Shown here: positions 2,844 through 44,664 of the stretch, piece by piece
How positions within the stretch are numbered: position 1 is the first letter of the stretch
Layout of the letters: each line of letters starts with the position of its first letter
Assembly: GCA_965204575.1 (NCBI GenBank)
Contig: OZ241993.1
Span: forward strand, 576,001 to 640,000
Source of the DNA: an uncultured candidatus Porisulfidus sp.
GTDB taxonomy: Bacteria; Pseudomonadota; Gammaproteobacteria; Poriferisulfidales; Poriferisulfidaceae
Direction: 5' to 3'
DNA: 64,000 nucleotides
Made by a program: the position numbers and the translations under genes
Notes under the pieces: model-generated
The model's database searches: none
Told to the model about the DNA's origin: nothing
The model's input: only the letters and a program-made list of their open reading frames with translations

Positions 2844-2947
2844 TCACAAAGCTCGCGGCTTCCGTTGAACGCAAATCCCCTATAATTCGTATTTCATTTT
2901 TCCGATTCCCCGATTTTCCCCTGCCACAGGCTTACAGGAGAAACCCG

Positions 2948-3580
2948 ATGGCTTTGTCACAAGAAGAACTCGACGCAATCATGGAGCGGAAGGGCAAGAT
3001 GCGCCGCGAGGCGTACGATCGTCGTGCCGCCCAGGAAAACAAGGACGAAATCAGTGCCCAGGCGGTCGCGCGCCTGATGGCCCTGCAGGAGTACCAGGAC
3101 GCGAATACCGTCATGTGGTACATCGACTGCCGTTCCGAAACCCGAACCAAGCCCGAACTGCTCGAAGAAGTGGCCAAGGGCGAGAAGAAGATCGTCGTGC
3201 CGTACTGCACGGTAGACGAAAAAGGCGACAACAAGCTCGGCCTTTGGCACATGGAAAGCCTGGAGGAGATGGTGGTCGGCAAGTGGAACATCCTCGAGCC
3301 GCCCAAGGAGATGTGGGGCAACCCGGACAAGGAGCCGCCGGCGGAAGAACTGGACATGGTGATGGTTCCCGGTGTCGGGTTCGACCGCACCGGGGGGCGC
3401 ATGGGCAACGGCCAGGGGTACTACGACCGCCTGCTTGAGCGGGTCCGCCCGGATTGCTCGCTGGTGGCGCTGTGCTACGAGTCGCAGCTATTCGACGAGA
3501 TTCTGGTCGCCCCGCACGACGTGTACATGGATTACGTGGTGACCGAAGACGCGGTGTACAAGGGCCGCGGGCGGGACTGA
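2948..3580 (+). CDS. 5-formyltetrahydrofolate cyclo-ligase
   Basis: MVPGVGFDRTGGRMGNGQGYYDR signature; RBS AGGAG before ATG 2948. Confidence 0.93.
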   Translation: MALSQEELDAIMERKGKMRREAYDRRAAQENKDEISAQAVARLMALQEYQDANTVMWYIDCRSETRTKPELLEEVAKGEKKIVVPYCTVDEKGDNKLGLWHMESLEEMVVGKWNILEPPKEMWGNPDKEPPAEELDMVMVPGVGFDRTGGRMGNGQGYYDRLLERVRPDCSLVALCYESQLFDEILVAPHDVYMDYVVTEDAVYKGRGRD

Positions 3581-3583
3581 GCC

Positions 3584-4510
3584 ATGCCGGCCCAGATAGA
3601 CGACACTTACGCGGAGGCGTTCCGCAGCCTTTACACTGAGTTCCTGATCACGGCCCGGGACCAAACCTGGGTCAAGCACGCGGTGGATGCCGCGGTCGGG
3701 AATGCCGCCAGCACCATCCTGTGTGACTGCGAGGCCGGCCTGGATCGTTTCGTCGGACCGGGCGGGGACGAATCCTTCGAGACCCCGGACGGTCGTCCGG
3801 GCGCCATCGTGCAACTGCATGTCCCGCGTTTCTGGAAGGATCGGGTGGAGAAGCTGGAGCGGGCCGCGCTGGTCCGGATCAGCCAGAACGTGCTGACCTG
3901 TCCGACGGCGTCCTGCTTCAACCTCCTGGACACCGAGGAGTACTACCAGATGGGACGGAAGGTGGCCTATTTCGGCAATGGCAAGCAACGCCGCATCGAG
4001 CGCTTCGGCCGAAAGATGTGGTGGGTGCCGATCCTGGGCGGCGAGTTCGTGCTGGACCGCCGGCTGGGCTATGCCGACGGCTTGATGGGCGGCAACCTGT
4101 GGTTCTTCGGCAGCGATGCCGATTCCGCGCTTGAGGCCGCCATGAAGGGGGCCGAAGAGATCGCGAAGAGTCCGGGGGTGGTGATGTGCTTTCCGGGCGG
4201 GATCGCGGGATCCGGCTCCAAGCCCGGCAGCAACTACGAATTCTCGATTGCCAGCACCTACGAGAAATACTGCCCCCTGCTGCAGGACGACCCGGAAGTC
4301 GAACAGGGCCTCCCCGAAGGCGTCAACTCGGTCATGGAGATCATCATCAACGGACGCAACCTGGAGACTATCATCCAGGCCACTCACGCGGCCATCGAGG
4401 CCTCCAAGGACACCGAGGGCCTGATCATGATCTCGGCCGGCAACTATGGCGGCCGTCTCGGCAAGAACCTGATCTATCTCGATCCGGACAAGCAGCCTCC
4501 CGTTGAGTGA
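3584..4510 (+). CDS. fhcD: formylmethanofuran:tetrahydromethanopterin formyltransferase (Ftr/FhcD family)
   Basis: IDDTYAEAF, ETPDGRPG, QNVLTCPT, GGNLWF, SGSKPGS, ISAGNYGGRLG motifs. Confidence 0.92.
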   Translation: MPAQIDDTYAEAFRSLYTEFLITARDQTWVKHAVDAAVGNAASTILCDCEAGLDRFVGPGGDESFETPDGRPGAIVQLHVPRFWKDRVEKLERAALVRISQNVLTCPTASCFNLLDTEEYYQMGRKVAYFGNGKQRRIERFGRKMWWVPILGGEFVLDRRLGYADGLMGGNLWFFGSDADSALEAAMKGAEEIAKSPGVVMCFPGGIAGSGSKPGSNYEFSIASTYEKYCPLLQDDPEVEQGLPEGVNSVMEIIINGRNLETIIQATHAAIEASKDTEGLIMISAGNYGGRLGKNLIYLDPDKQPPVE

Positions 4511-5366
4511 GCCCGGCCAGCTGATCGATGGCAATGCGTTGGCGCGCGAAATCCGCGCGCGATTGGCCGAACACCTGGACTCCGCTGCACCGGTAACCCT
4601 GGCGACCGTGCTGGTCGGCGAGGATCCGGCCAGCCAGCTGTACATCTCCCGCAAGATCAAGGAAGCCGGCGAAGTCGGCATTATTTCCCGGCACCAGACG
4701 CTGCCGGCGGACATCGCGCAGGACGACCTCGTCGAGGCGATCCGTATCCTGGCGCACGATGCTTCCGTGCACGGAATCCTGGTGCAGATGCCACTGCCGT
4801 CGGTGCTGGATGCCGCCGAGGTGCTGGCCGCCATCCCTCCGGAGAAAGACGTGGACGGCCTGACGGAAACCAACCTGGGCCGGCTCGCGGCCGGGCTTCC
4901 CGGGCTTCGCCCGTGCACGCCGTTCGGCGTGATGGAACTGCTTCGGCACTACCGGATCACGACTTCCGGGGCAAGCGCGCTGGTGATCGGGCGCTCCCGG
5001 CTGGTGGGCATCCCGATGGCCCTGATGTTGGCCGAGAAGGGGGTGGATGCGACCGTAAGCGTGGCGCACTCGCGAACCCGGGACCTGCAGCAGCTCGCCC
5101 GCGAGTCGGACATCCTGGTGGCGGCGACCGGCAGTCCCGGGATGGTCACGGCGGATTTCGTCAAGCCGGGCGCGGCGGTGTTCGACGTCGGGGTCAGCCG
5201 CGTGGACGGCAAGATTCAGGGTGACGTGTGTTTCGAGGAAGTGCGGGAGGTCGCGGGGTTCGTGACGCCGATGCCCGGCGGTACCGGGCCGATGACGGTG
5301 GCCTGCCTGTTGCTCAACACGGTGCGGGCGGCGGCGATGCAGGGCGTGGTTGCGCCTCTGCCGTAG
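4503..5366 (+). CDS. folD: bifunctional methylene-THF dehydrogenase / methenyl-THF cyclohydrolase
   Basis: HGILVQMPLP, KDVDG, PCTP, IGRSRLVG, TPMPGGTGPMTV; TTG start overlaps ftr end. Confidence 0.95.
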   Translation: MSEPGQLIDGNALAREIRARLAEHLDSAAPVTLATVLVGEDPASQLYISRKIKEAGEVGIISRHQTLPADIAQDDLVEAIRILAHDASVHGILVQMPLPSVLDAAEVLAAIPPEKDVDGLTETNLGRLAAGLPGLRPCTPFGVMELLRHYRITTSGASALVIGRSRLVGIPMALMLAEKGVDATVSVAHSRTRDLQQLARESDILVAATGSPGMVTADFVKPGAAVFDVGVSRVDGKIQGDVCFEEVREVAGFVTPMPGGTGPMTVACLLLNTVRAAAMQGVVAPLP

Positions 5367-5414: not shown

Positions 5415-5648
5415 TCATAGGAGCGGATTACCCTTGGCCTTGTGAAAGCCTTCGGCGAAGCCCTCCTTCCATTCCTCGAACAGGACTCTGGCCCGGTTCT
5501 CGGCCCTCAGGTAGAGTTCCTCCGTGAGGTCTTCATCCGCCTGAGAGTAACCCGCGCTGTATGCTTCCTCCAGGAGTTCCATCGATTTGGCGGGTTCCTG
5601 CTCCAGCGTTTCTGCGAGACGGTCCAGAAGGCGAGATTTGTAGCCCAT
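5415..5648 (-). CDS. small acidic hypothetical protein
   Basis: 77-aa helical-looking ORF co-oriented just downstream of vapC. Confidence 0.5.
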   Translation of the reverse strand: MGYKSRLLDRLAETLEQEPAKSMELLEEAYSAGYSQADEDLTEELYLRAENRARVLFEEWKEGFAEGFHKAKGNPLL

Positions 5649-5687
5649 GGTTGTTTTCCGGTAATGAACCTAAAAGATTGCGCCGAT

Positions 5688-6128
5688 TCAACCTGCATCC
5701 CAGGGATTGATGATCTCGACCCCCAGGGCTTCAAAATCCCTCGCGTCCCGGGTGACCAGCGCAAAGTCGTTCGCTACGGCCGTCCCTGCGATCAGGGCGT
5801 CGCTTACTGCGAGTGGATGACCTGAGCGTTTCGCTTTGGCCCGGAGAAGAGCCGCCGCCTCCATCTCTTCTTCCCCGATTGGCAGTATGCGGCCCTTGAA
5901 CAGGTCCATGAGGAAACTGATCTGGATTTTCAGGGTATCTTGGCGGTGCCCTTGCGGGAGAAGATGAACGCCATATTCCAACTCGCCGCACACGACGACG
6001 GATGTCCAGAATTTTTTCCGATCGGCCAGAAAGGCGACAACCGAAGCGGCCGGGTCGTGTTTCGTGAATTCGGAAAACACGTTGGTGTCGAGAAGGAAAC
6101 CAGACACGTCACTCCGTCGCGTAATCAA
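5688..6128 (-). CDS. vapC: PIN-domain (VapC) toxin
   Basis: LLDTNVFSE, ELEYG, DALIAGTA, LVTRD..DF; real start may be slightly downstream. Confidence 0.92.
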   Translation of the reverse strand: MITRRSDVSGFLLDTNVFSEFTKHDPAASVVAFLADRKKFWTSVVVCGELEYGVHLLPQGHRQDTLKIQISFLMDLFKGRILPIGEEEMEAAALLRAKAKRSGHPLAVSDALIAGTAVANDFALVTRDARDFEALGVEIINPWDAG

Positions 6129-6426
6129 TGAATGGAATGGGGCGCTCCCTCTCCTCTTTCCTTGAAGGAATTTCCAGGCCGTCCTTGGGCAGGTCTTCCG
6201 GATTGGGCCTGAACTTCATGATCATCTCGCCAAGCGACATGCCTGAAGTCTCTGTGGCTTTCCAGGCTTCCCGCGGCATGATGACGAAGGTCTTTTTCAC
6301 CCCGACCTGCTGCGGTCCTTCTTCTTCGGCCAGCCGCAGGATCTCGGACAGGCGGGCCTTGGCCTCGGCGATTGGCCAGACTTTCTCGGACAGTTCAGCG
6401 GCAGGATTTTTCATGGTTCTCTCCAT
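6109..6426 (-). CDS. Phd/YefM-family antitoxin
   Basis: WPIAEAKARLSEILRLAEEEGPQ; overlaps vapC start. Confidence 0.85.
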   Translation of the reverse strand: MERTMKNPAAELSEKVWPIAEAKARLSEILRLAEEEGPQQVGVKKTFVIMPREAWKATETSGMSLGEMIMKFRPNPEDLPKDGLEIPSRKEERERPIPFIDYATE

Positions 6427-6431
6427 AAAAA

Positions 6432-6449
6432 CTAGTCTAATCTAGTCTA
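6432..6449. promoter_or_regulatory. putative TA autoregulatory operator
   Basis: tandem CTAGTCTA repeats (6432-6439, 6442-6449) just upstream of the antitoxin start. Confidence 0.55.
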
Positions 6450-6502
6450 TCATATTTTCCTCGATGTATGGCTTCATTCAGTCGGAATTGCACGATGCCG
6501 GG

Positions 6503-6511
6503 TGCTATACT
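6503..6511 (+). promoter_or_regulatory. extended -10 promoter for tRNA-Glu
   Basis: TG-c-TATACT ending 14 nt upstream of the tRNA. Confidence 0.5.
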
Positions 6512-6525
6512 GAAAAAACAGCTTC

Positions 6526-6600
6526 GCTCCCTTCGTCTAGCGGTCAGGACATCGCCCTCTCAAGGCGGGAACAGGGGTTCGATTCCCCTAGGGAGCGCCA
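6526..6600 (+). tRNA. tRNA-Glu(CTC)
   Basis: GCTCCCT..AGGGAGC-G-CCA acceptor stem, anticodon loop CT-CTC-AA, T-loop GTTCGATTC. Confidence 0.95.
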
Positions 6601-6813
6601 TCGCCTGTTTTTCCCGCCCCAAGGTGCCGGGATCTTCTTCCCGAAATTTCAGCCACTGGGTTTTTCATCGGCAAAGGCATTGATGCCGGGGTCGGGCCTG
6701 AGCGAGGCCCAGATGCATAGAGCGTACAGGTCGAGGAATGGTGTTAGAATTTCGGCCAGTTCCTGATGGGAGGTGCAGAATCGTGAATGGTCGTTCCATC
6801 TCTGGGCGGTTCC

Positions 6814-6849
6814 TGCCGCAATATTGCGGCATTAATACCCCCCCCCCCC
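6814..6849. repeat. 18-bp perfect palindrome followed by a C12 homopolymer
   Basis: TGCCGCAATATTGCGGCA (6814-6831) and 12 C (6838-6849). Confidence 0.85.
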
Positions 6850-6871
6850 TCTTTCTGAAGGCTCGCACTCG

Positions 6872-9316
6872 ATGTGTGCTGAAGAAACAACGTTTGGCCT
6901 AGCGTCCAGATTTTTCAGATTCTTTCAGGCCGCCGCCATGCTTCTGGCTGCCGCCATTCTTGTCTCGGCCTGTGGAGGCGGAGGCGGGGGCGGTGTTGGA
7001 GGCGGCACCGAAGACACTCGCATGCCTCCTCCCGAGGATCCTCCCCCTGCAGACAATATGGCCGGGGCTCCCACTGATGAGCCCCCTCCTGATGACCCCT
7101 CTCAACAACCTGCGCAACCCGGTTTCCAAGCCCGGGCGCAGGCGATTGCCAGCCAGTACCACAGCAACAGAGAGTTCTCCAACCAGTGGGGTTTGGGCCG
7201 GACCCGGGCCGACCGGGCGTACGCGCATCTGGAACTCGCGCTCGGTTCCGGCTTCAGCGCGGGGAAGGGAGTGACCATCGGGGTCGTCGACACGGGCATT
7301 GACCTCAGCCATCCGTCCTTTGTCACCAACGCCAGTGATCCGGACAAGGACAGGACAATTACCCGACAACTCCTGCCCGGTGCGTCAATTGAAGACGGAA
7401 GCAAGTCTTCGCATGGCACGGCGGTTGCAGGCGTCGCTGCCGGAGGCCGGAATACCGGTTTTTCTCAAGCGGCTCATGGGGTTGCCTGGAACGCCAACCT
7501 TGCAGTCTTCGCCGTTTCGCTGGGGTCTGGAGACGGCACTTACCGTCCCGTGGACTTGTCCGGCTTCGCGCAGCAGCAGGAGGACGACCTGAACCGGTGG
7601 TTCAGCACACCTCTTTCCTGGCGTGGGTCGGGCGGGGAACGCATTGACATCCTGAATTTGAGTTTGGGCATCACTGGGATCATCGAGAGCTACAGCGAGT
7701 CAGCCCTCCGCACCGCTCTTGGCGATGTTATTCAAACCATGGCCCAGGCAGGGGCGTCGGAGAAGACCATCCTGGTTTGGGCGGCCGGCAATAGCCATGG
7801 CGATACGTGTTTGCCCGGTTCGACTGCTGCCGAATGCAGGCAGGGGACAGTCAGTGCGACTTCCCCTTCGATCCTTCCGGGGCTGCCGGCGAAGATCAGC
7901 GAATTGCGGGGCCATGTCGTCGCCGTCGTGTCGGTTGGCGAGAGTGGGGCGATCTCGGGTTTCTCGAACCGCTGCGGAATTGCGGCCGACTGGTGCCTTG
8001 CCGCCCCCGGGGATAACATATTGACCTCCTACTTTGGTCCCAGAAGCGATAACGATCCCACGGTGATACGGGGTTATGGCAGATTCAGAGGCACATCTTT
8101 CGCCGCACCGATGGTGTCGGGCGGACTCGCGTTGATGAAGCAGCTCTTCCGCGGGCAATTGTCGAACACGGCCCTGCTTTCCCGGCTTTTCGCGACGGCC
8201 GACAAGAGCGGCAGGTACGCCAACCGGAGCATTTATGGCCAAGGCCTGATGGACCTTGGCGCCGCAACGACCCCCCGTGGGCAAACCACCGTGGCGATTG
8301 GCAATAGAGTCGGAGGCCCCGGCGGGAATCTGCAAACGTCCAACATCGTGCTCGGCCGCGCGTTTGGCGACGGGCTGACGCAATCTTTCGCGGGCAGGGA
8401 GATCGCGGCATTCGATTCACTGGGGGCGCCGTTCTGGTTTGATCTTGGCAACTTCGCGACTCCCGTGCGTACCCCCTCGTTGGCGAGACGACTCAAGAAC
8501 TTTATGGCGCGGACGCCGGAAGCGCCAGGAACCGAGGCTCGACGGACTTCTTTTTTCGCGGGGACAGGAAAAGCGAGACCTGGCCGCTGGCGGCTTGGCT
8601 TGCTGGAGACTCCGGCAGGGGTTCGGGGAGGGCACCTCGGGCTTGCCGGACATGCGAATACTTTCACCTACGAAGGGTGGAAAGATCTGACGGCCACGGC
8701 GTTTTCGACGGAAGGCTTTCGGCAGGCTCCGACATCGGGGGCGGTTCTGTCCTGGCGACCACCCGAAGCCTGGGCCAGCCTGCGTGCCGGCTGGATGATG
8801 GAACGGAAAAGCTTGCTTGGAAGTACGGCAAAAGGGGCTTTCGGCAGCCTGTCTTCCGATTCCGCGTTCATCGGATTCAATGCGGACACTTGGGTTGACG
8901 GGTGGCACCTTGGCGCGAACGCTGAGGTGGGGCTCGCCACCGTAAAACCGCGCAACGGGTTAATTGCGGACGTCTCCCCCGTTGCCACGGGCGCGTTCGC
9001 GGTTCGCGCGACCCGGCCGTTCTCCGGCGATAGGCTGTTGCAGTTTTCCGTGTCGCAGCCGTTGCGGGTCGAGCAGGGCCGCGCCACGCTGTCCGTACCT
9101 GTTGGCCGCACCAAGGATGGCGATGTCTTGCGCCGGTCGGTCGCGGCGGACATTACCCCGACAGGCCGGCAGATCGATGTCACGGCGCACTGGCACCAGC
9201 CGTTGACTACGATGGGTGAATTGCGCTTGGGCGCGGCTTGGACCCGCGATCCGGGACACAGCGCGACGGAAAGTTCGGACCTGTCCTTCATGGTGGGTTG
9301 GCGTTCTCCTTTCTAA
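6872..9316 (+). CDS. S8 subtilisin-family serine peptidase, lipoprotein with C-terminal beta-rich (autotransporter-like) domain
   Basis: lipobox LVSA-C + poly-Gly/Pro linker; VVDTG, HGTAVAG, AAGN, GTSFAAP; terminal Phe; start may be ATG 6938. Confidence 0.9.
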   Translation: MCAEETTFGLASRFFRFFQAAAMLLAAAILVSACGGGGGGGVGGGTEDTRMPPPEDPPPADNMAGAPTDEPPPDDPSQQPAQPGFQARAQAIASQYHSNREFSNQWGLGRTRADRAYAHLELALGSGFSAGKGVTIGVVDTGIDLSHPSFVTNASDPDKDRTITRQLLPGASIEDGSKSSHGTAVAGVAAGGRNTGFSQAAHGVAWNANLAVFAVSLGSGDGTYRPVDLSGFAQQQEDDLNRWFSTPLSWRGSGGERIDILNLSLGITGIIESYSESALRTALGDVIQTMAQAGASEKTILVWAAGNSHGDTCLPGSTAAECRQGTVSATSPSILPGLPAKISELRGHVVAVVSVGESGAISGFSNRCGIAADWCLAAPGDNILTSYFGPRSDNDPTVIRGYGRFRGTSFAAPMVSGGLALMKQLFRGQLSNTALLSRLFATADKSGRYANRSIYGQGLMDLGAATTPRGQTTVAIGNRVGGPGGNLQTSNIVLGRAFGDGLTQSFAGREIAAFDSLGAPFWFDLGNFATPVRTPSLARRLKNFMARTPEAPGTEARRTSFFAGTGKARPGRWRLGLLETPAGVRGGHLGLAGHANTFTYEGWKDLTATAFSTEGFRQAPTSGAVLSWRPPEAWASLRAGWMMERKSLLGSTAKGAFGSLSSDSAFIGFNADTWVDGWHLGANAEVGLATVKPRNGLIADVSPVATGAFAVRATRPFSGDRLLQFSVSQPLRVEQGRATLSVPVGRTKDGDVLRRSVAADITPTGRQIDVTAHWHQPLTTMGELRLGAAWTRDPGHSATESSDLSFMVGWRSPF

Positions 9317-9417
9317 TCGCCGAAGCACTCCAGAAATAATCGACAGGCCCCGTGACGGAGGCCTCGTGCAGCGGGGTTCGAATTTGGGGATTACATAGAT
9401 AACTTGACAAACACAAG

Positions 9418-9537
9418 TCAGACTTCCTTGACATAGGGTTTGCCTTTCTTATCCGTCCGCATCACGAACTTCCATTCAAGGTCTTTCATCGTGGGCGTGG
9501 CGTGAAAATCACAGCCTTTGTTGAATGGTGGGTCAGT
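9418..9537 (-). pseudogene. DNA methyltransferase relic
   Basis: minus strand reads TDPPFNKGCDFHATPT.. (motif IV DPPF) with no start and no motif I. Confidence 0.55.
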
Positions 9538-9607
9538 GCGATAAAAGGCCTATAGAAAATATAGCGTTAATTTTGTTAACTAAAGTAGATGATTCCCAAA
9601 AAAAGGT

Positions 9608-11201: not shown

Positions 11202-11419
11202 CCTGCAAATGTTAGCATATTTCGGTAGGCTAACTTTGTATATGTGGTATTTTAATATAGAAATGTCAATAATTTCCACTACATACAGTATACTCTCCGC
11301 CACCTTACCAAAGCATTGTTTGCTCTCTGTCAACTAAAGTATGTAATTCCCTCGAATTTGGTGAAATCCCCGCTCTGTGGCATATTACGCGCCTAGCGGG
11401 CTGGCGACGGGTGCTTTTG

Positions 11420-11523: not shown

Positions 11524-12804
11524 ATGCCCGCTGAAAAACTTGTCTTTCCTGGCCGCAACTATCTCTACGCGCCAGGACCCACGCATATCCCGGTCGAGGT
11601 TCAGAACGCCATGGTCGTCCCGATGGAGGATCATCGGGCGCCCGATTTCCCCCAGCTGGTCAAACCCCTCCTGCGCGACCTGAACAAGATCTTCAAGACC
11701 CGCACCGGCAAAAGTTTCATCTTTCCCGCCACCGGCACGGCCGGCTGGGAAGTGGCCCTGACCAACACCCTGTCGCCCGGCGACCGCGTCCTGACTGCCC
11801 GTTTCGGGCAGTTTTCGCATCTGTGGGCGGACCTGGCCGCGCGCATGGGCCTGGATGTGGAACTGGTGCAGGTGAAGTGGGGCGAAGGCGTGCCGCTGAA
11901 GCAGTTCGAGCAGATCCTGAGAAAAGACAAGGAGCATAAGATCAAGGCAGTGCTGGCCTGCCACAACGAGACCGCGACCGGGGTGACCAGCAACATCGCG
12001 GGCCTGCGCCGGGCCATGGACCGGGCCAAGCACCCGGCCATGCTGATGGTCGACGGCGTCAGCTCCATCGCGAGCATCGACTTCCGCATGGACGAATGGA
12101 AGGTCGACGTGGCCGTGTCCGGTTCGCAGAAGGGCTTCATGCTGCCGGCCGGCATGGCGCTGGTGTGCTTCTCGCGCCGCGCACTGACGGCAGCCAAGAC
12201 CGCCAAGTGCAGGCGTTGCTTCCTGGACATCGCCGATCACATCGCGACCAACAAGGACGGATTCTTCCCGTACACCCCCTCGGCACCGATGCTGCGCGGC
12301 CTGCGCGCCTCCATCGACCTGTTGCTCGGGGAAGGCCTGGAGAACGTGTTCCAGCGCCACCACCGGCTGGCCGAAGGCGTGCGCCGGGCCATTGGCGGAT
12401 GGGGCCTGGACCTGTGCGCGGCCGAGCCGAAGTGGTATTCCGACACGGTATCGGCCATCAAGGTCCCGAGAAACGTCAATGCTGCCGAAGTGATCCACAT
12501 CGCCTACCACCGCTACAACATCTCGCTGGGCGCCGGCCTGTCCGAGGTCGCCGGCAAGGTGTTCCGAATCGGCCATCTGGGCGACAACAACGAAGTGCGC
12601 ATGATGGCGGCCCTCGGCGGCGTCGAGATGGCGATGCGCGACGCCGGCATGAAGGTGCGCCCGGGTTCGGGCGTGGCCAAGGCGGTCGAGTACTACTGCG
12701 ACACCGCGAAGGGCAAGAAGAAGATCCCTGCATTCGGTGCCGCCAAAGGCCCCCGCGAGACCGCGGCCAAGAAGAAAGCGGCGCCCAGGCGCAAGAAGAA
12801 GTAA
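11524..12804 (+). CDS. sgaA: serine-glyoxylate aminotransferase
   Basis: PGPT, EDHRAPDF, HNETATG, VDGVSS, SGSQKG (PLP Lys), FPYTP, FRIGHLG. Confidence 0.93.
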   Translation: MPAEKLVFPGRNYLYAPGPTHIPVEVQNAMVVPMEDHRAPDFPQLVKPLLRDLNKIFKTRTGKSFIFPATGTAGWEVALTNTLSPGDRVLTARFGQFSHLWADLAARMGLDVELVQVKWGEGVPLKQFEQILRKDKEHKIKAVLACHNETATGVTSNIAGLRRAMDRAKHPAMLMVDGVSSIASIDFRMDEWKVDVAVSGSQKGFMLPAGMALVCFSRRALTAAKTAKCRRCFLDIADHIATNKDGFFPYTPSAPMLRGLRASIDLLLGEGLENVFQRHHRLAEGVRRAIGGWGLDLCAAEPKWYSDTVSAIKVPRNVNAAEVIHIAYHRYNISLGAGLSEVAGKVFRIGHLGDNNEVRMMAALGGVEMAMRDAGMKVRPGSGVAKAVEYYCDTAKGKKKIPAFGAAKGPRETAAKKKAAPRRKKK

Positions 12805-12814: not shown

Positions 12815-13756
12815 ATGAGCCACACTCAAGCCACCCCCGCGCCGACCCGCCTGCAGCGCAGCGAACTGGCGGTCCCGGGTTCCAACCCGGCGCTGTTCGA
12901 AAAAGCGCTGAACTCCGAGGTTGACTACGTCTTCCTGGACCTGGAGGACGCGGTCGCGCCGGGCGACAAGGAGCAGGCCCGGATCAATGTCATCCAGGCC
13001 CTGCTTGACCTGGACTGGCGAGGGGCGGGAAAAACCATCTCGGTTCGGATCAACGGACTCGACACTCACTACATGTACCGCGACGTCGTGGACCTGATGG
13101 AACAGGCGGGAGACCGTCTGGACACGATCCTGATTCCGAAAGTCGGAGTGCCGTCGGACGTCTACATGGTTGAGGCGATGGTGAACCAGATCGAACAGGG
13201 GAAAGGCTTCGAGACCCGGGTCGGCCTGGAAGCCCTGATCGAAACGGCTCTCGGCATGGCCAACGTCGAGGCGATCGCCGCCTACGGCGGACGCCTGGAG
13301 GCCCTGCACTTCGGGGTGGCGGACTACGCCGCTTCCAACCGCGCGCGCACGGTCAACATCGGCGGGCTCAATCCCGACTACCCGGGAGACCAGTGGCACT
13401 TCGCCCTGTCCCGCATGACGGTGGCCTGCCGGGCGTACGGCCTGCGGGCGATCGACGGGCCGTTCGGCGACTTCAAGGATCCGGATGGCTACCGCGCGGC
13501 CGCGCGCCGCGCCGCTGCGCTCGGGATCGAGGGCAAGTGGGCGATCCATCCGTCCCAGATCGAACTGGCCAACGAGATCTTCTCTCCGCCGAAGGCGGAA
13601 GTGGACCGGGCCCGGCGGATCCTGAAGGAACTGGAGATTGCGGCGGCGGAAGGCCGGGGCGCGGCTGCCGTCGACGGCAAGATGATCGATGCGGCATCGG
13701 CCCGGATGGCCGAGAATGTGGTGCGTTTGGCGGAAGCAATCGCCGCACGCAGCTGA
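12815..13756 (+). CDS. mcl: malyl-CoA lyase
   Basis: RLQRSELAVPGS, DLEDAVAP, HFGVADYAAS, DGPFGDF, EGKWAIHPSQ. Confidence 0.93.
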   Translation: MSHTQATPAPTRLQRSELAVPGSNPALFEKALNSEVDYVFLDLEDAVAPGDKEQARINVIQALLDLDWRGAGKTISVRINGLDTHYMYRDVVDLMEQAGDRLDTILIPKVGVPSDVYMVEAMVNQIEQGKGFETRVGLEALIETALGMANVEAIAAYGGRLEALHFGVADYAASNRARTVNIGGLNPDYPGDQWHFALSRMTVACRAYGLRAIDGPFGDFKDPDGYRAAARRAAALGIEGKWAIHPSQIELANEIFSPPKAEVDRARRILKELEIAAAEGRGAAAVDGKMIDAASARMAENVVRLAEAIAARS

Positions 13757-13772
13757 AACGAGGACAAACAAC

Positions 13773-14945
13773 ATGCATATACACGAATACCAGGCCAAGG
13801 AAGTCCTGGCCAACTACGGGATTCAGATCCAGCCGGGGACCCTGGTGTACAGCCCCGATCAGGCGGTCGCGGCCTACAACTCCCAGGGATCCGCGGTGTG
13901 CGCGGTCAAGGCGCAGATTCATTCCGGTGCCCGCGGCAAGGCCGGGGGCATCCGCCTGTGCCGGAGCAACGACGAGGTGCGCCGTGCCGCCGACGAGATG
14001 CTCGGCGAGAAGCTGGTGACCCACCAGACCGGTTCGAGCGGCAAGCTGGTGCAGAAACTGTACGTCGAGGCCGGGGTCGACATCGACCGCGAAATCTACC
14101 TCGCGTTCGTGCTGGACCGGGCCAAGCAGCGGCACGTCGCCGTGGCTTCCGCCGAGGGCGGCATGGAGATCGAGCAGCTGGCCCAGGAGAAGCCGGACAG
14201 CATCCTGCGCATCAGCATCGACCCGGCTTCCGGCATGCGCCACTTCCAGGCGCAGGAACTCGCTTTCGGGCTGGGCCTGGGAGCCGATCTGGTCAAGCAG
14301 GCGGTGGCCACGTTCCGCGGCCTGTACAAGGCGATGATCGAACTGGATGCCAGCATGGTCGAGATCAATCCATTGGTGGTGACCCGGGACCGTCGCCTGA
14401 TCGCGCTGGACGCCAAGATGGAATTCGACGACAACGCGCTGTTCCGCCACCGCGAGGTGGCCGAGTTGCGCGACATGTCGCAGGAGGACCCGCGCGAGAC
14501 CGCGGCCTCCGACCACGACCTCAGCTACGTGGGACTGGATGGCGACATCGGCTGCATGATCAACGGGGCCGGGCTGGCCATGGCCACCATGGACATGATC
14601 AAGCTGTCCGGAGGCGAGCCGGCCAACTTCCTCGACATCGGCGGCGGCGCGTCGCCGGAGCGGGTGGCCAAGGCGTTCGAGCTGGTGCTGCAGGACGGCA
14701 ACGTCAAGGCCATGCTGGTCAACATCTTTGCCGGAATCAACCGCTGCGACTGGATCGCCGAAGGCCTGATCAAGGCACTCGGCGTGGTCGATCTCGGCGT
14801 GCCCCTGGTGGTGCGCCTGTCCGGCACCAATGTGGAGGAAGGCACCCAGATGCTGGTCGACAGCGGATTGCCCATCATCATGGCCGACACGCTGGCCGAT
14901 GCCGCCCAGAAGGCGGTGGCGGCCGCACGGGAACAGGGAGAGTGA
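13773..14945 (+). CDS. mtkA: malate thiokinase (malate-CoA ligase) large/beta subunit
   Basis: HEYQAKE, KAQIHSGARGKAGG, GAGLAMATMD, NIFAGINRCD; serine-cycle context. Confidence 0.9.
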   Translation: MHIHEYQAKEVLANYGIQIQPGTLVYSPDQAVAAYNSQGSAVCAVKAQIHSGARGKAGGIRLCRSNDEVRRAADEMLGEKLVTHQTGSSGKLVQKLYVEAGVDIDREIYLAFVLDRAKQRHVAVASAEGGMEIEQLAQEKPDSILRISIDPASGMRHFQAQELAFGLGLGADLVKQAVATFRGLYKAMIELDASMVEINPLVVTRDRRLIALDAKMEFDDNALFRHREVAELRDMSQEDPRETAASDHDLSYVGLDGDIGCMINGAGLAMATMDMIKLSGGEPANFLDIGGGASPERVAKAFELVLQDGNVKAMLVNIFAGINRCDWIAEGLIKALGVVDLGVPLVVRLSGTNVEEGTQMLVDSGLPIIMADTLADAAQKAVAAAREQGE

Positions 14946-14949
14946 CACG

Positions 14950-15837
14950 ATGTCGATTCTGATCAACAAAGACACCAAGATCCTGATCCAGGGCTTCACC
15001 GGCCGGATCGGAACCTTTCATGCCAAGGAGATGCTGGAATACGGCAGCAACGTGGTCGGGGGCGTCACGCCGGGGAAAGGGGGACAGGCGCACCTGAACC
15101 TGCCGGTGTTCAACACCATCAAGGAAGCGGTGGAAGCGACCGGCGCAACGGCCAGCATCGTATTCGTGCCTGCCGCCGCGGCCGCCGACTCGATCATGGA
15201 GGCCGCCGACGGCGGCATCAAGTATTGCGTGGCGATCACCGACGGCATCCCGGCCCAGGACATGATTCGCGTCAAGCGCTTCATGCTGCGCTACCCGAAG
15301 GAGCGCAAGATGATCCTGACCGGGCCCAACTGCGCGGGTTCCATCACGCCGGGCGAAGCGATGCTCGGCATCATGCCGGGCCATATCTACGAGCCGGGCC
15401 GGGTCGGCGTGGTCGGACGTTCCGGCACGTTGGGCTACGAGGCCGCCTCGCAGATGAAGGCCGAAGGCATCGGCATCTCGACCAGCATCGGGATCGGCGG
15501 CGATCCGATCAACGGCAGTTCGCACCGCGACATCCTGGAGTTGTTCGAACAGGACCCCGACACGGACGCGGTCATGATCATCGGCGAGATCGGAGGGCCG
15601 CAGGAAGCCGAAGCGGCGGCATTCGCGCGCGACCACATGAACAAGCCGGTCGCGGCCTACGTGGCCGGGCTGACGGCGCCGAAGGGACGGCGCATGGGCC
15701 ATGCCGGGGCCATCATTTCCGGGAAAGGCGAGAGCGCCTCGGAGAAAGTCGAAATCTTCCAGGAAGCCGGCGTGGCAATCGTGCCGAACCCTTCCGAATT
15801 CGGCACCACCATGAAAGACGTTGTATCAAAGCTCTGA
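14950..15837 (+). CDS. mtkB: malate thiokinase small/alpha subunit (SucD-like)
   Basis: QGFTG, GPNCAG, RSGTLGYEA, RRMGHAGA (phospho-His). Confidence 0.9.
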   Translation: MSILINKDTKILIQGFTGRIGTFHAKEMLEYGSNVVGGVTPGKGGQAHLNLPVFNTIKEAVEATGATASIVFVPAAAAADSIMEAADGGIKYCVAITDGIPAQDMIRVKRFMLRYPKERKMILTGPNCAGSITPGEAMLGIMPGHIYEPGRVGVVGRSGTLGYEAASQMKAEGIGISTSIGIGGDPINGSSHRDILELFEQDPDTDAVMIIGEIGGPQEAEAAAFARDHMNKPVAAYVAGLTAPKGRRMGHAGAIISGKGESASEKVEIFQEAGVAIVPNPSEFGTTMKDVVSKL

Positions 15838-15846: not shown

Positions 15847-16818
15847 ATGTCCAAACCCAAAGTCATTGCCACGCGCCGCTGGCCGGAGCCGGTCGAGGCG
15901 CACCTGTTCGAGCACTACGACTTCACGCTCAACGAGGACGACCACCCGATGGGCGTGGACGAGTTGCACCAGGCTCTGCGCGAGTACGATGCGGTTTGCC
16001 CGACCGTGACGGACCCGATCACCGCCGAGGTGCTCGGCATCGACGGCATCCGCGCGAAAATCCTGGGCAATTTCGGCGTGGGCTTCAACCATATCGACTT
16101 GGACGCGGCCAAGCAGGCCGGCCTCGTGGTGACCAATACGCCGGAAGTTTTAACCGACTGTACCGCCGATATCGCCATGAATCTGTTGCTGACCGCCGCC
16201 CGCCGCACCGGCGAAGGCGAACGGCACCTGCGCGCCGGGGAATGGGCCGGTTGGCGCCCGACCCACATGCTGGCGACCAAGGTCACCGGCAAGACCCTGG
16301 GTTGCGTCGGTTTCGGTCGCATCGCCCAGGCCATGGCCCAGCGCTGCCATCTCGGTTTTGGCATGAAGGTGATCTTCCACGACCCGTACCCGCCGAAGCC
16401 GGAAATCGTGGAAAAATTCCAGGCGACTGCCTGCGATTCGGTCGAGGAAGTGCTGGAGAAGGCGGATTTCGTGTCCCTGCATTGCCCGGGTGGCGAATCG
16501 ACCTATCACCTGATCAACGATGAGCGCCTGGCCCGGATGAAGTCTTCCGCCATACTGGTCAATTCCGCCCGAGGCGACATCATCGACAATCAGGCCCTGA
16601 TCAAGGCGTTGAAGAATGGCACCATCGCGGGGGCCGGGCTCGACGTCTTCGAAGGCGAACCCAAGCTCGACCCGGGATTCCTGGATCTCGAGAATGCGGT
16701 TCTGGTGCCGCACCTCGGAAGCGCGTCGACCGAGACCCGGATCGCCATGGGCATGCGGGTGGTCGAGAACCTGGATATGTTCTTTTCCGACCAGGAGCCG
16801 CGCGACCGCGTCGCCTGA
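15847..16818 (+). CDS. hprA: hydroxypyruvate reductase / D-glycerate dehydrogenase
   Basis: NTPEVL, GFGRIA, VNSARG, GLDVFEGEP, PHLGS. Confidence 0.85.
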   Translation: MSKPKVIATRRWPEPVEAHLFEHYDFTLNEDDHPMGVDELHQALREYDAVCPTVTDPITAEVLGIDGIRAKILGNFGVGFNHIDLDAAKQAGLVVTNTPEVLTDCTADIAMNLLLTAARRTGEGERHLRAGEWAGWRPTHMLATKVTGKTLGCVGFGRIAQAMAQRCHLGFGMKVIFHDPYPPKPEIVEKFQATACDSVEEVLEKADFVSLHCPGGESTYHLINDERLARMKSSAILVNSARGDIIDNQALIKALKNGTIAGAGLDVFEGEPKLDPGFLDLENAVLVPHLGSASTETRIAMGMRVVENLDMFFSDQEPRDRVA

Positions 16819-16847: not shown

Positions 16848-19550
16848 ATGCCGTCCGACGTCGCCGCTTCTGCCGATCGCCCGGAAGACCGCATACGCGC
16901 CGACACCCTGCGCTATACCGAGAGTATGGTCCAGCAGCTGGGCGGGTTGCTGCTGGGAGTCATTCGTCGCCGCACCCCGGAAATTGTCCCGCTTCTTGAA
17001 AGCCGAGGGGAGATAACCTCGGAGACCCGATTGCGGGTTCTCCAGGCCTACGGGATCGGCTTCCAACTGTTCAATATCGCCGAGCAGAACGCGGCAATCC
17101 GGCATCGCCGGGCAATCGAGGACGAACTCGGGCCGCAGCAGGTCCCCGGTTCTTTTTCTGCCGCGCTCGCGCACGCCCGCGCTGTCGGGCTTGATGCCGA
17201 AGCCGTTCGCGACCGCCTGCGGGGCGCGCAGGTCGTGCCGGTGCTGACGGCGCACCCGACCGAGGCCAAGCGGGTAACGGTACTGGAAATCCACCGACGC
17301 ATCTACGTGCTGCTCAAGGAGCTGGAAGAGACCCGCTACACGGAGCGGGAACGCCAGCGCATGATCGATGCCATCAGCGACGAGATCGACCTGCTGTGGA
17401 TGACCGGAGAAATTCGCCTGACCAAACCCACCGTGACCGAGGAGGTCGCGTGGATCCTGCACTTTTTCGACGAATCGCTTTATCGTGGTGCGCGCGACCT
17501 GTTCTGGCAGTTGTCGCAGGCGCTGAAAGAGCACTATCCCGACACGCAGTTCGAGACGCCACCGCTGCTCCACTTCGGTTGCTGGGTCGGCGGCGACCGC
17601 GACGGCAATCCCCACGTGACGCCCGAGGTGACCCGGGAGGCTCTCGATGGCTACCGGGAAGCGGCGCTGTCGCACCTGTACCGGCAGATGGCCGAGGCCC
17701 GAAGCCGGCTGTCCATCGCCGCCCATGCGGTGACCGTGCCCGGGAACTTCCTGTCGCGGCTGGACGTGATGCTGGGCGGGCAGGAGGACGCCAAGGCGCT
17801 GCGCGCCCGCAATCCCCAGGAAGTATTCCGGCAATACCTGAACCTTTTGATGCGCCGCCTCGAAGCGACTCAAAATGAGGCGCCGGATGGATACGCCAAC
17901 GCGACCGAACTGGTGGAAGACCTGAAGGCCTTGGAGAGAGGCTTGCGCGAAACCGACTGCGGCTCCATCGCCGACTTGCTGGTGCGCCCGCTGCGCCTGG
18001 AAGCGCAAGTGTTCGGCTTCCATACCGTGAGCCTGGACATTCGCGAGAACAGCACCGTGATCAACAACACCCTGTCGGCCCTGTATCGCCAGTTGGAAGG
18101 GGAGGAACCGCCGGAGCCGGGCAGCGAAGCATGGCGGGAATGGCTGAAGCGGCAGATCGCCGAACCCATGGAAACCCTTCCCGAATTTGAACTCGGGGAT
18201 GAGATGGCGCAGCGCACCGTGGCGCTGTTCCAGTTGCTCGGCGAGATCGCGGACCGGCGCGGGATGGAGCCGTTCGGGGCCTTCATCCTGAGCATGACGC
18301 ACACGCCGGCGGATCTGCTCGGGGTGTACCTCTTGGCCAAATACGGCGGGCTGTTTTCCGACCTCAAGAACTGCGAAACCTGCCGCCTGCCGGTGGTGCC
18401 GCTGCTGGAGACGATCGACGACCTGCGCCGGGGACCCGTGCTGCTGCGCGAGATGCTGGATGTCCCGATGGTGCGCCGCAGCGTCCGTGCCGGCCTTGGA
18501 GTCATGGAGGTCATGGTCGGGTATTCCGACTCCAACAAGGACGGCGGATTCCTGTGTTCCAACCATGAAGTGTCGCTGGCTCAGGCTCGAATGCGCCGGG
18601 TGGGCGAGGAGCGTGGCGTGCCGGTGGCGTTCTTCCATGGACGCGGCGGATCTTCGTCACGCGGCGGGATGCCGGCCGGCCGTGCGATTGCCGCCCAGCC
18701 GCCGGGCACCATCGGCGGGCGGATGCGCCTGACCGAACAGGGCGAAGTGGTGTCGGGAAAGTACGCGAACCGCGGCTATGCGGAGACGCAACTGGAGATC
18801 CTGGCGGCCAGTGTGCTGGAACATTCCCTGCCTGGAGACGAGAATCGCCATCCCGGGTTCGAGGAGGCGATGGAGGCCTTGTCGAAGCTGTCGTACACCG
18901 CCTACCGGAAACTGGCCGATCACCCCGGCCTGGTCATGTTCTACCAGGATGCCTCGCCGGTCGAGGAGCTGGCGTTGCTCAAGATCGGCTCCCGCCCGAT
19001 GCGCCGGTTCGGCGCCAATACCCTGGACGACCTGCGTGCCATCCCTTGGGTGTTCGCCTGGACGCAGAACCGGATGATGGTCCCGGGCTGGTACGGGGTG
19101 GGCGACGCCATCGCGGAATTCATCCGGGTGCGGGGCAAGGCGGGCGAAAAACTTTTGCGCGAGATGTTCGAGCAGCACCGCCTGTTCCGGCTGGTGATCG
19201 ACGAGGTGGAGAAGACCCTGTTCCAGGTCCAGCTCGACATTGCGCGGGATTACGCTGCATTGGTTCCAGATCCCGAGGTGGGAGCCGAGATCTTCTCGAT
19301 GATCGAGCAGGAATACGAGCGGACTTGTGAGGCCGTGCTTCGGGTATCTGGCAGCGAGGCCCTGTGCGACCGCTTCGTGATGTTCAGCGACCGCCTGTCG
19401 CGGCGGTTGCCGATTATCGACCGGGTCAGTCGCGAACAGGTCGAACTGATCAAGCTATGCCGGAGCCAAGAGCGTCCGGAGACTTTGGACCTAGTTCCGC
19501 TGCTGCTGTCGATCAACTGCGTGGCGGCCGGGTTGGGCTGGACCGGTTAG
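16848..19550 (+). CDS. ppc: phosphoenolpyruvate carboxylase (serine-cycle-linked copy)
   Basis: VLTAHPTE, GGDRDGNP, GYSDSNKDGG, FHGRGG, RAIPWVF; ends GLGWTG. Confidence 0.95.
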   Translation: MPSDVAASADRPEDRIRADTLRYTESMVQQLGGLLLGVIRRRTPEIVPLLESRGEITSETRLRVLQAYGIGFQLFNIAEQNAAIRHRRAIEDELGPQQVPGSFSAALAHARAVGLDAEAVRDRLRGAQVVPVLTAHPTEAKRVTVLEIHRRIYVLLKELEETRYTERERQRMIDAISDEIDLLWMTGEIRLTKPTVTEEVAWILHFFDESLYRGARDLFWQLSQALKEHYPDTQFETPPLLHFGCWVGGDRDGNPHVTPEVTREALDGYREAALSHLYRQMAEARSRLSIAAHAVTVPGNFLSRLDVMLGGQEDAKALRARNPQEVFRQYLNLLMRRLEATQNEAPDGYANATELVEDLKALERGLRETDCGSIADLLVRPLRLEAQVFGFHTVSLDIRENSTVINNTLSALYRQLEGEEPPEPGSEAWREWLKRQIAEPMETLPEFELGDEMAQRTVALFQLLGEIADRRGMEPFGAFILSMTHTPADLLGVYLLAKYGGLFSDLKNCETCRLPVVPLLETIDDLRRGPVLLREMLDVPMVRRSVRAGLGVMEVMVGYSDSNKDGGFLCSNHEVSLAQARMRRVGEERGVPVAFFHGRGGSSSRGGMPAGRAIAAQPPGTIGGRMRLTEQGEVVSGKYANRGYAETQLEILAASVLEHSLPGDENRHPGFEEAMEALSKLSYTAYRKLADHPGLVMFYQDASPVEELALLKIGSRPMRRFGANTLDDLRAIPWVFAWTQNRMMVPGWYGVGDAIAEFIRVRGKAGEKLLREMFEQHRLFRLVIDEVEKTLFQVQLDIARDYAALVPDPEVGAEIFSMIEQEYERTCEAVLRVSGSEALCDRFVMFSDRLSRRLPIIDRVSREQVELIKLCRSQERPETLDLVPLLLSINCVAAGLGWTG

Positions 19551-23321: not shown

Positions 23322-24182
23322 ATGAAGAAACTGCTCTTTCATCTGGACACGGACGCCCAGCCATCCGCTTTCGACCAGGTGGTCGCCTACGACGGAGGCG
23401 CGGATGCCGTCCTGGCCTACGGCGGGGTCACTGCTGACAATTGCTTCCCGCTGGTGGAAGGTGCGATCTTCACCCGCGCGCCGAAAAACAAACGCTATAC
23501 CGCGATTCTGATCGGTGGTAGTGACCTGGCACAGGCCGAAGCCCTCATGGACACCGTGAAGTCCCAGTTTTTCCAAGGTTTCCGGGTGTCATTGATGATG
23601 GACGCTAATGGCTGCAACACCACTGCGGCGGCAGCAGTCGCGATGCTGGGTGCTGCGCACCCGCTTGAAGGCTCCAGCGCGACGGTGCTCGCCGGAACCG
23701 GGCCGGTTGGCCAACGTGCTGCGGTCATGTTGGCGCAGTCGGGAGCCCAGGTGCGCCTGACTTCACGCAAACTGGAGCGCGCCCAGCAGGCGTGCGAGGG
23801 AATTTCGGAACGTTATGGCGTGGCGGTGGAACCGATGGCGGCATCGGATGCGGCCGGGACGGCCGCCGCAATCGAAGGCGCGGCCATCGTCCTGGCTACG
23901 GGTCAGGCCGGGGTGCGGTTGCTGCCGACCGAAATCTGGCAGGCATCGTCCAGCCTGCGTGCGGTCGGGGACGTGGGAACCTGCCCGCCTCTGGGCGTGG
24001 AAGGGATGGACATGACCGATGGCGGTCGAGAAGTTGACGGAATCTCCCTGTTCGGCGGGCTGGCCTTCGGGGCCCTGAAACTCCGAACCCACCGCGAGGC
24101 GATCTCGCGGATGTTCGAGAGCAACGATCAGGTATGGGATGCCGAGGAGACGCTGGCCTTGGCCCGCGAGCTTTACGACTGA
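23322..24182 (+). CDS. mtdA: NADP-dependent methylene-H4MPT/methylene-H4F dehydrogenase
   Basis: MKKLLFHLDTD, FDQVVAYDGGAD, GAIFTRAP, DANGCNTTAAA, GTGPVG. Confidence 0.92.
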   Translation: MKKLLFHLDTDAQPSAFDQVVAYDGGADAVLAYGGVTADNCFPLVEGAIFTRAPKNKRYTAILIGGSDLAQAEALMDTVKSQFFQGFRVSLMMDANGCNTTAAAAVAMLGAAHPLEGSSATVLAGTGPVGQRAAVMLAQSGAQVRLTSRKLERAQQACEGISERYGVAVEPMAASDAAGTAAAIEGAAIVLATGQAGVRLLPTEIWQASSSLRAVGDVGTCPPLGVEGMDMTDGGREVDGISLFGGLAFGALKLRTHREAISRMFESNDQVWDAEETLALARELYD

Positions 24183-44662: not shown

Positions 44663-44664
44663 TC

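Follow-up and report, generated by a model that had tools for sequence, protein, structure and literature searches.

The stretch of DNA studied here, referred to as the window, comprises 64 kb (positions 576001-640000 of the source contig, OZ241993.1) from a gammaproteobacterium that is associated with sponges. Its closest named relatives are metagenome-assembled genomes, likewise sponge-associated, that carry the label 'Candidatus Porisulfidus'. Near one end it carries three tightly coupled genes, encoding a 5-formyltetrahydrofolate cyclo-ligase (5-FCL, or MTHFS), a divergent paralogue of the formyltransferase Ftr/FhcD, here called Ftr2, and FolD. The pairing of 5-FCL with Ftr2 recurs in nearly all close relatives, Ftr2 forms a clade of its own, and in two phyla it keeps company with one type of 5-FCL and seldom with formate-tetrahydrofolate ligase (FtfL). 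We propose that Ftr2 and 5-FCL may form a two-enzyme link from the tetrahydromethanopterin (H4MPT) pathway of formaldehyde oxidation to the tetrahydrofolate (THF) pool, a proposal that, judged from sequence, we give an even chance of being right.

An operon of 5-FCL, Ftr2 and FolD

The three genes lie on the plus strand, like all genes described below unless stated otherwise. Ahead of them is an A+T-rich leader with an 'aggaga' ribosome-binding motif (2844..2947), which is the probable start of the operon. We place a promoter there because of the gap that follows a thiO-like gene, the sole basis for the placement; a scan of 2844..2947 for the sigma-70 consensus gave no convincing site. 5-FCL (210 aa, 2948..3580; PF01812, 131.8 bits) starts with the ATG at 2948 behind the 'aggaga' motif, and a longer GTG frame from 2657 was discarded as an artefact of open reading frame (ORF) calling. 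Its TGA (3578-3580) is followed by 'gcc' and then by the ATG of Ftr2 at 3584, a gap of 3 nt. Ftr2 (308 aa, 3584..4510; PF01913, 135.8 bits; PF02741, 154.9 bits) is in turn overlapped by 8 nt, its stop at 4508-4510 included, by FolD, the methylene-THF dehydrogenase / methenyl-THF cyclohydrolase (287 aa, 4503..5366; PF00763, 115.1 bits; PF02882, 200.3 bits), which starts with the TTG at 4503. The tight coupling noticed in an earlier, sequence-only reading of this DNA can thus be read directly from both junctions. FolD falls below every NCBIfam FolD cut-off, the top model being NF010785 (324 bits versus 396). Contigs from a sponge metatranscriptome run, 93-96% alike and so from a relative, cover parts of all three genes; none spans the 5-FCL/Ftr2 junction, and one piece, 4370-4538, reaches 28 nt into the FolD side. 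These RNA-library contigs do not establish transcription of the three genes and are not used as support.

Ftr2 has both Ftr lobes at full length (PF01913 over residues 4-150, PF02741 over residues 153-299). It fails the FhcD equivalog TIGR03119 (277 bits versus a cut-off of 292.6) and narrowly passes the broader subfamily NF002554 (302.4 versus 297). It is a second copy, because a canonical FhcD, to which it is 40% identical, is encoded in an fhcB-A-D-C cluster elsewhere in the source genome; Ftr2 itself lies outside any fhcBADC or fhcCDAB cluster, between 5-FCL and FolD. The complex-bound FhcD of Methylorubrum extorquens matches Ftr2 with 155 bits and the FhcD of the source genome with 291 bits, and the stand-alone archaeal Ftr proteins match Ftr2 with 204-217 bits at about 40-43% identity.

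Is Ftr2 then a type apart? In a 50%-identity library, full-length relatives extend down to 64% identity, after which there is a jump to 46% or less. Among 401 gammaproteobacterial genomes the identities to the window's Ftr2 are bimodal, 70-100% or 36-44%, with nothing in the gap between, and among 201 genomes of Planctomycetia they are 54-75% or at most 45%. A maximum-likelihood tree of 67 sequences (quick search, LG+G4, midpoint rooting) separates an Ftr2 clade, made up of 22 sequences from the loci described below and 4 library sequences, from 41 other Ftr/FhcD representatives with an SH-aLRT support of 100, so that the phylogeny which the sequence-only reading had suggested as a check does set Ftr2 apart from canonical FhcD/Ftr. 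Within the clade, Planctomycetaceae are nested among gammaproteobacterial sequences and two Pirellulaceae are basal, which points to transfer of Ftr2 between phyla.

The catalytic glutamate of the family, Glu245 in the Ftr of M. kandleri, is present in Ftr2 as E252 in 'MEIIING'; it aligns with the glutamate of 'EIVING' in all four solved sequences and is invariant across 35 Ftr2 sequences. In FhcD the catalytic residue is Glu252, according to PMC6926001. Ftr2 also retains the motifs ETPDGRPG, FPGGI..SGSK and AGNYGG. Relative to canonical sequences its fixed changes are R19E, M151L and N226Y, together with five-residue inserts at 60-64 and 79-83. A complex prediction for two copies of Ftr2 and 5-FCL scored 0.01, with no control runs beside it, and says nothing either way. 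Some Ftr homologues are longer proteins: P0142 is FhcA-FhcD-like and P0166 FhcD-FhcC-like, and in P0238 (410 aa) a C-terminal piece of 5-FCL precedes a partial Ftr2-like sequence, a single case with weak scores that is possibly a gene-call artefact.

The partner, 5-FCL, matches its family at full length (profile positions 1-186 of PF01812) and lies above the MTHFS equivalog TIGR02727 (128 bits versus a cut-off of 84.9). Its C-terminal motif VPGVGFD...GNGQGYYDRLL, of the pattern PGxxFD...GxGxGYYDR, is kept, and the motif region VPGVGFDRTGGRMGNGQGYYDRLL was aligned to 1sou, 1ydm and 2jcb. At the loci that carry the pair, 5-FCL is 64-100% identical to the window copy, and FolD, beyond the closest relatives, 50-61%. 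Wherever Ftr2 occurs it is accompanied by a 5-FCL of one type, with 44-92% identity, as against 28-41% for comparisons with the 5-FCLs of Ftr2-less genomes. Pairwise distances of Ftr2 and 5-FCL correlate (Mantel r = 0.72, 0/999 permutations as high), as common ancestry by itself would also lead them to do.

Species-representative genomes contain 372 stretches that encode a relative of Ftr2. Our locus counts use the best 80 of these, 73-99% identical to Ftr2, and the upstream count is limited to the 77 with at least 700 nt of upstream sequence. In 75 of the 77 the gene immediately upstream of Ftr2, in the same orientation, is 5-FCL; of the two exceptions, L087 has its 5-FCL on a separate contig and L088 has it in divergent orientation at a distance of about 1.2 kb. 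Because it recurs so regularly, the arrangement is not a matter of chance. FolD is the next gene downstream of Ftr2 in 58/77 loci, and a gene resembling sga of the serine cycle follows further downstream on the same strand in 52/74, usually with mcl-mtkA-mtkB after it. The commonest order, 5FCL-Ftr2-FolD-sga-mcl-mtkA-mtkB, is found at 29 loci, and at 11 others the serine-cycle genes are present without FolD between. In the window the serine-cycle cluster begins at 11524, 6.2 kb past FolD, in keeping with the distance of about 6 kb given by the sequence-only reading. More distant relatives were represented by 80 metagenome loci, 54-71% identical to Ftr2 and queried with the 5-FCL, Ftr2, FolD and serine-cycle sequences; 52 of the 65 with enough sequence have 5-FCL directly upstream of Ftr2. 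The linkage to 5-FCL that had been conjectured for this clade is therefore borne out in close relatives, in deeper ones and, as described below, in the gene content of Planctomycetia.

Ftr2, its partner and FtfL across genomes

The source genome is a single contig of 1,816,663 bp (60% G+C, 98.75% complete). As the sequence-only reading had remarked, neither fhcA, fhcB, fhcC nor mch is found within the 64-kb window (Pfam and NCBIfam). These genes are located elsewhere: a canonical fhcB-fhcA-fhcD-fhcC cluster lies at about 333-338 kb of the source contig, 240 kb from Ftr2, and mch lies at about 1.477 Mb; mtdB, fae and H4MPT-biosynthesis-type genes are likewise present outside the window. All four products of the fhc cluster exceed the NCBIfam equivalog cut-offs, FhcD with 394.5 bits on TIGR03119, and this is the second fhcD whose existence the earlier reading had left to a genome search. 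The H4MPT-linked set for formaldehyde oxidation is thus complete and canonical, and a gene for the methanofuran-type synthase of 4-(hydroxymethyl)-2-furancarboxaldehyde phosphate (4-HFC-P) is also present. The same search gave mch, as just described, and zero matches in the genome to FtfL (PF01268) or to the methenyl-THF cyclohydrolase Fch (PF04961). The 5-FCL and FolD families have exactly one gene each, the operon copies.

How general is this gene content? We searched 50 of the 80 pair-bearing genomes, picked for long contigs and for diversity and including 8 Planctomycetota. All 50 have Mch, so that within this set a supply of formyl-H4MPT accompanies the pair throughout. All 50 have exactly one 5-FCL, and 49 have at least two Ftr genes. 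The fiftieth, G012, was considered as a natural knock-out with Ftr2 and without canonical FhcD/FhcA, and was rejected, as a 100-N gap lies directly upstream of a C-terminal remnant of fhcD and fhcC; the apparent loss is an assembly artefact. FtfL scores above its cut-off in 6/50, one copy being split by a TGA. Mch is also found in 44 of the 46 genomes compared at the level of the order, which therefore offer no contrast, and samples at the level of the class were used instead.

An even sample of 401 Gammaproteobacteria contains an Ftr homologue in 51 genomes, 11 with the Ftr2 type and 40 with canonical Ftr only. FtfL is present in 3/11 of the former versus 33/40 of the latter, where one of the 33 is a fragment at a contig end and one contains a TGA. 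Four of these genomes are flagged as unpublished, namely G353 (Ftr2 and FtfL) and G363, G209 and G132 (canonical only, with FtfL); without them the counts are 2/10 versus 30/37. In the Ftr2 genomes 5-FCL is 66-92% identical to the window copy and adjacent to Ftr2; elsewhere in the sample it is 28-36% identical, apart from a single genome at 54%.

An even sample of 201 Planctomycetia served as an independent replicate in another phylum. Ftr is found in 193 genomes and the Ftr2 type in 64, and FtfL accompanies Ftr2 in 4/64 (one of them a fragment) versus 58/137 genomes without Ftr2, or 52/129 of those with canonical Ftr only. The matching 5-FCL type (44-78% identity) is found in 64/64 Ftr2 genomes versus 3/137 of the others. 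By comparison of coordinates, Ftr2 and 5-FCL are adjacent in 28 of the 64 and far apart or on different contigs in 36. Since the co-occurrence persists where the genes are unlinked, hitch-hiking within an operon is ruled out as its explanation. No mtkA above the cut-off was found in any of the 201 genomes, which indicates that in Planctomycetia the pair operates without the serine cycle.

A proposed formyl hand-over and its alternatives

What might a second formyltransferase and a cyclo-ligase accomplish together? In the scheme that we propose, Fae, MtdB and Mch, whose genes are present, would make N5-formyl-H4MPT. Ftr2, as a stand-alone enzyme with its catalytic glutamate intact, would then transfer the formyl group to N5 of THF, either directly or through formyl-methylofuran. 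The 5-FCL family catalyses an ATP-dependent, irreversible cyclisation of 5-formyl-THF; here 5-FCL would act as a step of a pathway, and not in repair alone, in converting N5-formyl-THF to 5,10-methenyl-THF. FolD, an MtdA-like dehydrogenase or both could reduce the product to methylene-THF for serine hydroxymethyltransferase and the enzymes of the serine cycle, and FolD could additionally supply 10-formyl-THF. The pair would in this way substitute for FtfL and Fch, likewise spending one ATP, and would need no free formate. In Planctomycetia, with no mtkA marker, it would feed formaldehyde-derived one-carbon (C1) units into folate. This scheme is the simplest for the data set as a whole, since it would explain why there is a spare formyltransferase, why this is strictly paired with one 5-FCL type and why it depends on the H4MPT pathway, as well as the FolD and serine-cycle partners in the operon, the scarcity of FtfL and the lack of Fch. 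Gene content, linkage, co-occurrence and the conserved catalytic residue are observed; THF as acceptor and the nature of the donor are inferred. A broader form of the proposal, in which Ftr2 formylates N5 of THF and 5-FCL provides a committed, ATP-driven step, would make the pair a valve through which C1 units pass between the two carrier systems in one direction only, and which has taken the place of FtfL (and Fch) in marine and sponge-associated Gammaproteobacteria as well as in about one third of the sampled Planctomycetia; to this we would give slightly under an even chance.

From where would Ftr2 draw its formyl group? N5-formyl-THF is reportedly far more stable than N10-formyl-THF, so that transfer to N5 from formyl-methanofuran or formyl-H4MPT should be feasible, pulled by the irreversible 5-FCL reaction. 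The donor may be N5-formyl-H4MPT, a free furan pool, or the Fhc complex with Ftr2 docked onto it, routes between which the data do not distinguish. The methylofuran of M. extorquens is described as a prosthetic group that is bound tightly but non-covalently in Fhc and anchored on FhcC, the subunit onto which FhcD also docks (Hemmann et al. 2019, PMC6926001). A freely diffusing formyl-methylofuran donor is therefore doubtful, and N5-formyl-H4MPT is just as likely to be the source. Thus, where the sequence-only reading had Ftr2 link the H4MPT/furan branch to folate, the genomic predictions of the link hold up, and the free furan donor within it does not fare well.

Several further points weigh against the proposal. 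Acceptance of THF by Ftr2 goes beyond what a sequence can show: with nearly all Ftr motifs kept, Ftr2 could be an ordinary H4MPT/methylofuran enzyme, just as 5-FCL, typical of its family and present exactly once in each of the 50 genomes, could be an ordinary folate repair enzyme. FtfL coexists with the pair in 6/50, 3/11 and 4/64 genomes of the respective samples. FtfL is also missing from 7 of the 40 gammaproteobacterial genomes with canonical Ftr only, so that its loss needs no pair, and it is rare in bacteria generally, being found in 3-4 of 14 control genomes. The Fisher tests on the co-occurrence tables give small p-values, whose significance is overstated because the genomes compared are relatives. 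Among the deeper relatives, 13/65 loci have no 5-FCL beside Ftr2, and the seven inspected have unrelated neighbours. Finally, the source genome yields no PQQ (pyrroloquinoline quinone) methanol dehydrogenase above the family cut-off that could supply the formaldehyde. The coexistence with FtfL, the seven FtfL-less genomes, the rarity of FtfL, the 13 unpaired loci and the reliance on sequence are what keep our confidence at an even level.

The alternative that survives best, which we nevertheless think unlikely, is that the genes are merely co-regulated. Ftr2 would then be an ordinary formyl-methylofuran:H4MPT isoenzyme, for example an Fhc-free form, and 5-FCL a repair enzyme; no metabolite would pass between them, and a shared need at high C1 flux would account for the operon. 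Serine hydroxymethyltransferase makes 5-formyl-THF as a side product, which is removed by 5-FCL in repair. The retained glutamate and main motifs of Ftr2, its constant company of Mch (50/50) and canonical Ftr, and the single 5-FCL of each genome, above the MTHFS cut-off and with normal motifs, all agree with this explanation. It leaves unexplained why a second formyltransferase is kept by genomes that have the canonical one, and why FtfL is depleted. Nor does it say why one 5-FCL type tracks Ftr2 in Planctomycetia (64/64 versus 3/137), even with the genes unlinked in 36/64 and mtkA in 0/201, or why 5-FCL is 65-85% identical across two phyla when FolD, at the same loci, is 50-57% identical.

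A second alternative, raised already by the sequence-only reading and in our view improbable, is that 5-FCL acts on N5-formyl-H4MPT. Ftr2 would make this compound from formyl-methylofuran and ATP would drive it to methenyl-H4MPT, in a reductive pathway that carries formate irreversibly into the H4MPT pool. N5-formyl-H4MPT is what Ftr is known to make and closely resembles the substrate of 5-FCL; the pair always occurs with the H4MPT pathway; and an Ftr2-less genome has a 54%-identical 5-FCL beside two tandem genes of Mpt_N dehydrogenases. The presence of Mch in all 50 pair-bearing genomes speaks against this route, for Mch interconverts the same two compounds without ATP, and an ATP-wasting cycle would result. 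Moreover, the usual operon partner is a folate enzyme, FolD (58/77), methylene-H4MPT is no substrate of the serine cycle, and the genomes would be left with no 5-formyl-THF cyclo-ligase.

Reverse flow, in which Ftr2 would move formyl groups from formyl-THF to methylofuran or H4MPT, so that folate C1 units (from demethylations, for example) were oxidised to formate by Fhc in place of PurU or a reversed FtfL, is less probable still: reactions of the Ftr family are reversible, the operon's FolD could provide 10-formyl-THF, and the source genome has Fhc and no FtfL that was found, but the strict partner of Ftr2 is 5-FCL and not FolD (75/77 versus 58/77 loci; 64/64 co-occurrence), 5-FCL leads irreversibly away from 5-formyl-THF and has no role in an oxidative route, and the lead position in an operon for the assimilatory serine cycle favours entry of C1 units over their disposal.

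Genomic setting, known systems and significance

The serine-cycle cluster of the window opens with an sga-like class-V aminotransferase of the serine-glyoxylate/aspartate-glyoxylate type (11524..12804; PF00266; 586 bits on NF045640, BhcA, where the cut-off of 650 is not reached). It is followed by a malyl-CoA lyase-like lyase of the HpcH/CitE family, mcl (12815..13756; PF03328 and PF15617), named from family and context with all NCBIfam matches below cut-off. The malate-CoA ligase beta subunit, mtkA, occupies the ORF at 13689..14945 and matches NF010647 from residue 29 (648 bits, cut-off 604); its real start is probably about 84 nt within the ORF. The alpha subunit of a malate/succinate-CoA ligase, mtkB (ORF 14830..15837; PF02629 and PF00549), matches NF004230 from residue 41 (424 bits), and here too the real start probably lies inside the ORF. 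Then come hpr, a D-2-hydroxyacid dehydrogenase of the hydroxypyruvate/glyoxylate reductase type (15847..16818; PF02826 and PF00389, below the NCBIfam cut-offs), and the phosphoenolpyruvate (PEP) carboxylase gene ppc (16848..19550; PF00311, 744.9 bits), at which the cluster ends. A second dehydrogenase gene of the Mpt_N family is found at 23322..24182 (PF09176, 100.2 bits). It has no NCBIfam match, and no model distinguishes MtdA from MtdB; we call it MtdA-like because of its position beside the serine-cycle genes.

Two segments interrupt this arrangement. Between FolD and sga, the 6 kb at 5442-11333 contain small ORFs of no recognised family, a subtilase S8 gene (6872-9316) and two family-less ORFs on the minus strand, and G+C content falls to 0.54 at 8-12 kb of the window. 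Since sga follows FolD directly in most relatives, the segment looks like an insertion into the operon, one that the source genome shares with its closest relatives. Between ppc and the MtdA-like gene, a low-G+C island (19608-23272; 0.44 versus about 0.61) encodes restriction-modification functions: an N6/N4 DNA methylase, an EcoO109I-type restriction endonuclease and an AIPR-domain protein. Elsewhere in the window, a second PEP carboxylase gene stands alone on the minus strand (59867-62662; 1015 bits on PF00311), so that there are two in the 64 kb. A single ORF of 3442 aa (49092-59420) encodes a type I polyketide/fatty-acid synthase with the Pfam order KS-AT-DH-methyltransferase-ER-KR-ACP and then a second KS-AT. 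A 422-aa ORF (44584-45852) joins HPPK (folK) and deoxynucleoside-kinase domains, which may reflect a gene fusion or an artefact of ORF calling.

Other C1 loci gave observations of their own. At L092 (G390:C1:2044000-2062000, 8605-11482), in a genome of 46% G+C that has FtfL and only canonical Ftr, a divergent 5-FCL gene, whose product is 54% identical to the Ftr2-linked type, adjoins two tandem Mpt_N (MtdA/MtdB-type) genes; judging by this locus, the Ftr2-linked lineage of 5-FCL may have a connection to C1 metabolism that does not require Ftr2. Around the fhc cluster of the source genome (L004, contig positions 326000-344000; 229-7324 within the locus), fhcC is followed by genes for an FdxA-type ferredoxin and a GltD-like NAD(P) oxidoreductase and then by two toxin-antitoxin pairs, RES/Xre-like and AbiEii/AbiEi. 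In L005 (contig positions 1468000-1486000; 129-1721 within the locus), purL and the H4MPT cluster are immediately preceded by a TnpB-like gene, whose product combines OrfB_IS605 and a Cas12f1-like TNB domain. In another genome of the same order (G067:C1:2055735-2056371), three short matches to Mch positions 1-43, spaced by 254 nt, sit just upstream of a full-length mch and resemble a tandem repeat of the 5' end of the gene.

How does the pair compare with systems already described? With FhcD and archaeal Ftr (EC 2.3.1.101; PDB 1ftr/2fhj/2fhk, 1m5h, 1m5s and 6s6y chain D) Ftr2 shares the two-lobe architecture, the catalytic glutamate and the main motifs; it differs in its sub-equivalog score, its location outside fhcBADC, its own clade, its substitutions and inserts, and in having 5-FCL as partner rather than FhcA, FhcB and FhcC. 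The window's 5-FCL belongs at full length, with motifs kept, to the known 5-FCL/MTHFS family (EC 6.3.3.2; PDB 1sou, 1ydm, 2jcb, 3hxt), from which it would differ in carrying pathway flux beyond repair. In serine-cycle methylotrophs such as M. extorquens, C1 units enter through FtfL and Fch (with MtdA), and an ftfL mutant of M. extorquens reportedly fails to grow on C1 substrates. The net result proposed for the pair is the same, from formyl-level C1 to methenyl-THF and then methylene-THF for one ATP, as is the place beside serine-cycle genes; unlike that route, of which the source genome has neither enzyme, the pair would pass through N5-formyl-THF instead of N10-formyl-THF and would need no free formate. 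The only kind of enzyme known to us that uses or forms N5-formyl-THF by group transfer is glutamate formimidoyl/formyltransferase, the transferase domain of FTCD, which interconverts 5-formyl-THF and N-formylglutamate. It likewise has a duplicated alpha/beta-lobe architecture, but it belongs to other Pfam families, with no sequence match seen, and offers an analogy only. We found no description of the 5-FCL–Ftr2 pair in searches of full-text literature, among them searches on sponge symbionts; the literature covered takes in few subscription journals, so that an older account is possible. The pair is a case of known enzyme families in an undescribed, conserved partnership, one that probably brings with it a new substrate specificity.

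To our knowledge, free formate and FtfL are the sole junction of the H4MPT and folate branches in textbook accounts of methylotrophy, and we know 5-FCL only as a repair enzyme. A direct hand-over of formyl groups, if true, would be a new connection between pathways and a new substrate range for the Ftr family, and it would give 5-FCL its first role in a metabolic pathway. The pair is widespread, from the 372 stretches in species-representative genomes to 64/201 Planctomycetia and many sponge-symbiont Gammaproteobacteria. The hand-over would change how C1 assimilation is read from metagenomes. It would account for serine-cycle operons with no apparent entry step, and it would offer a formate-free module for the engineering of C1 assimilation.

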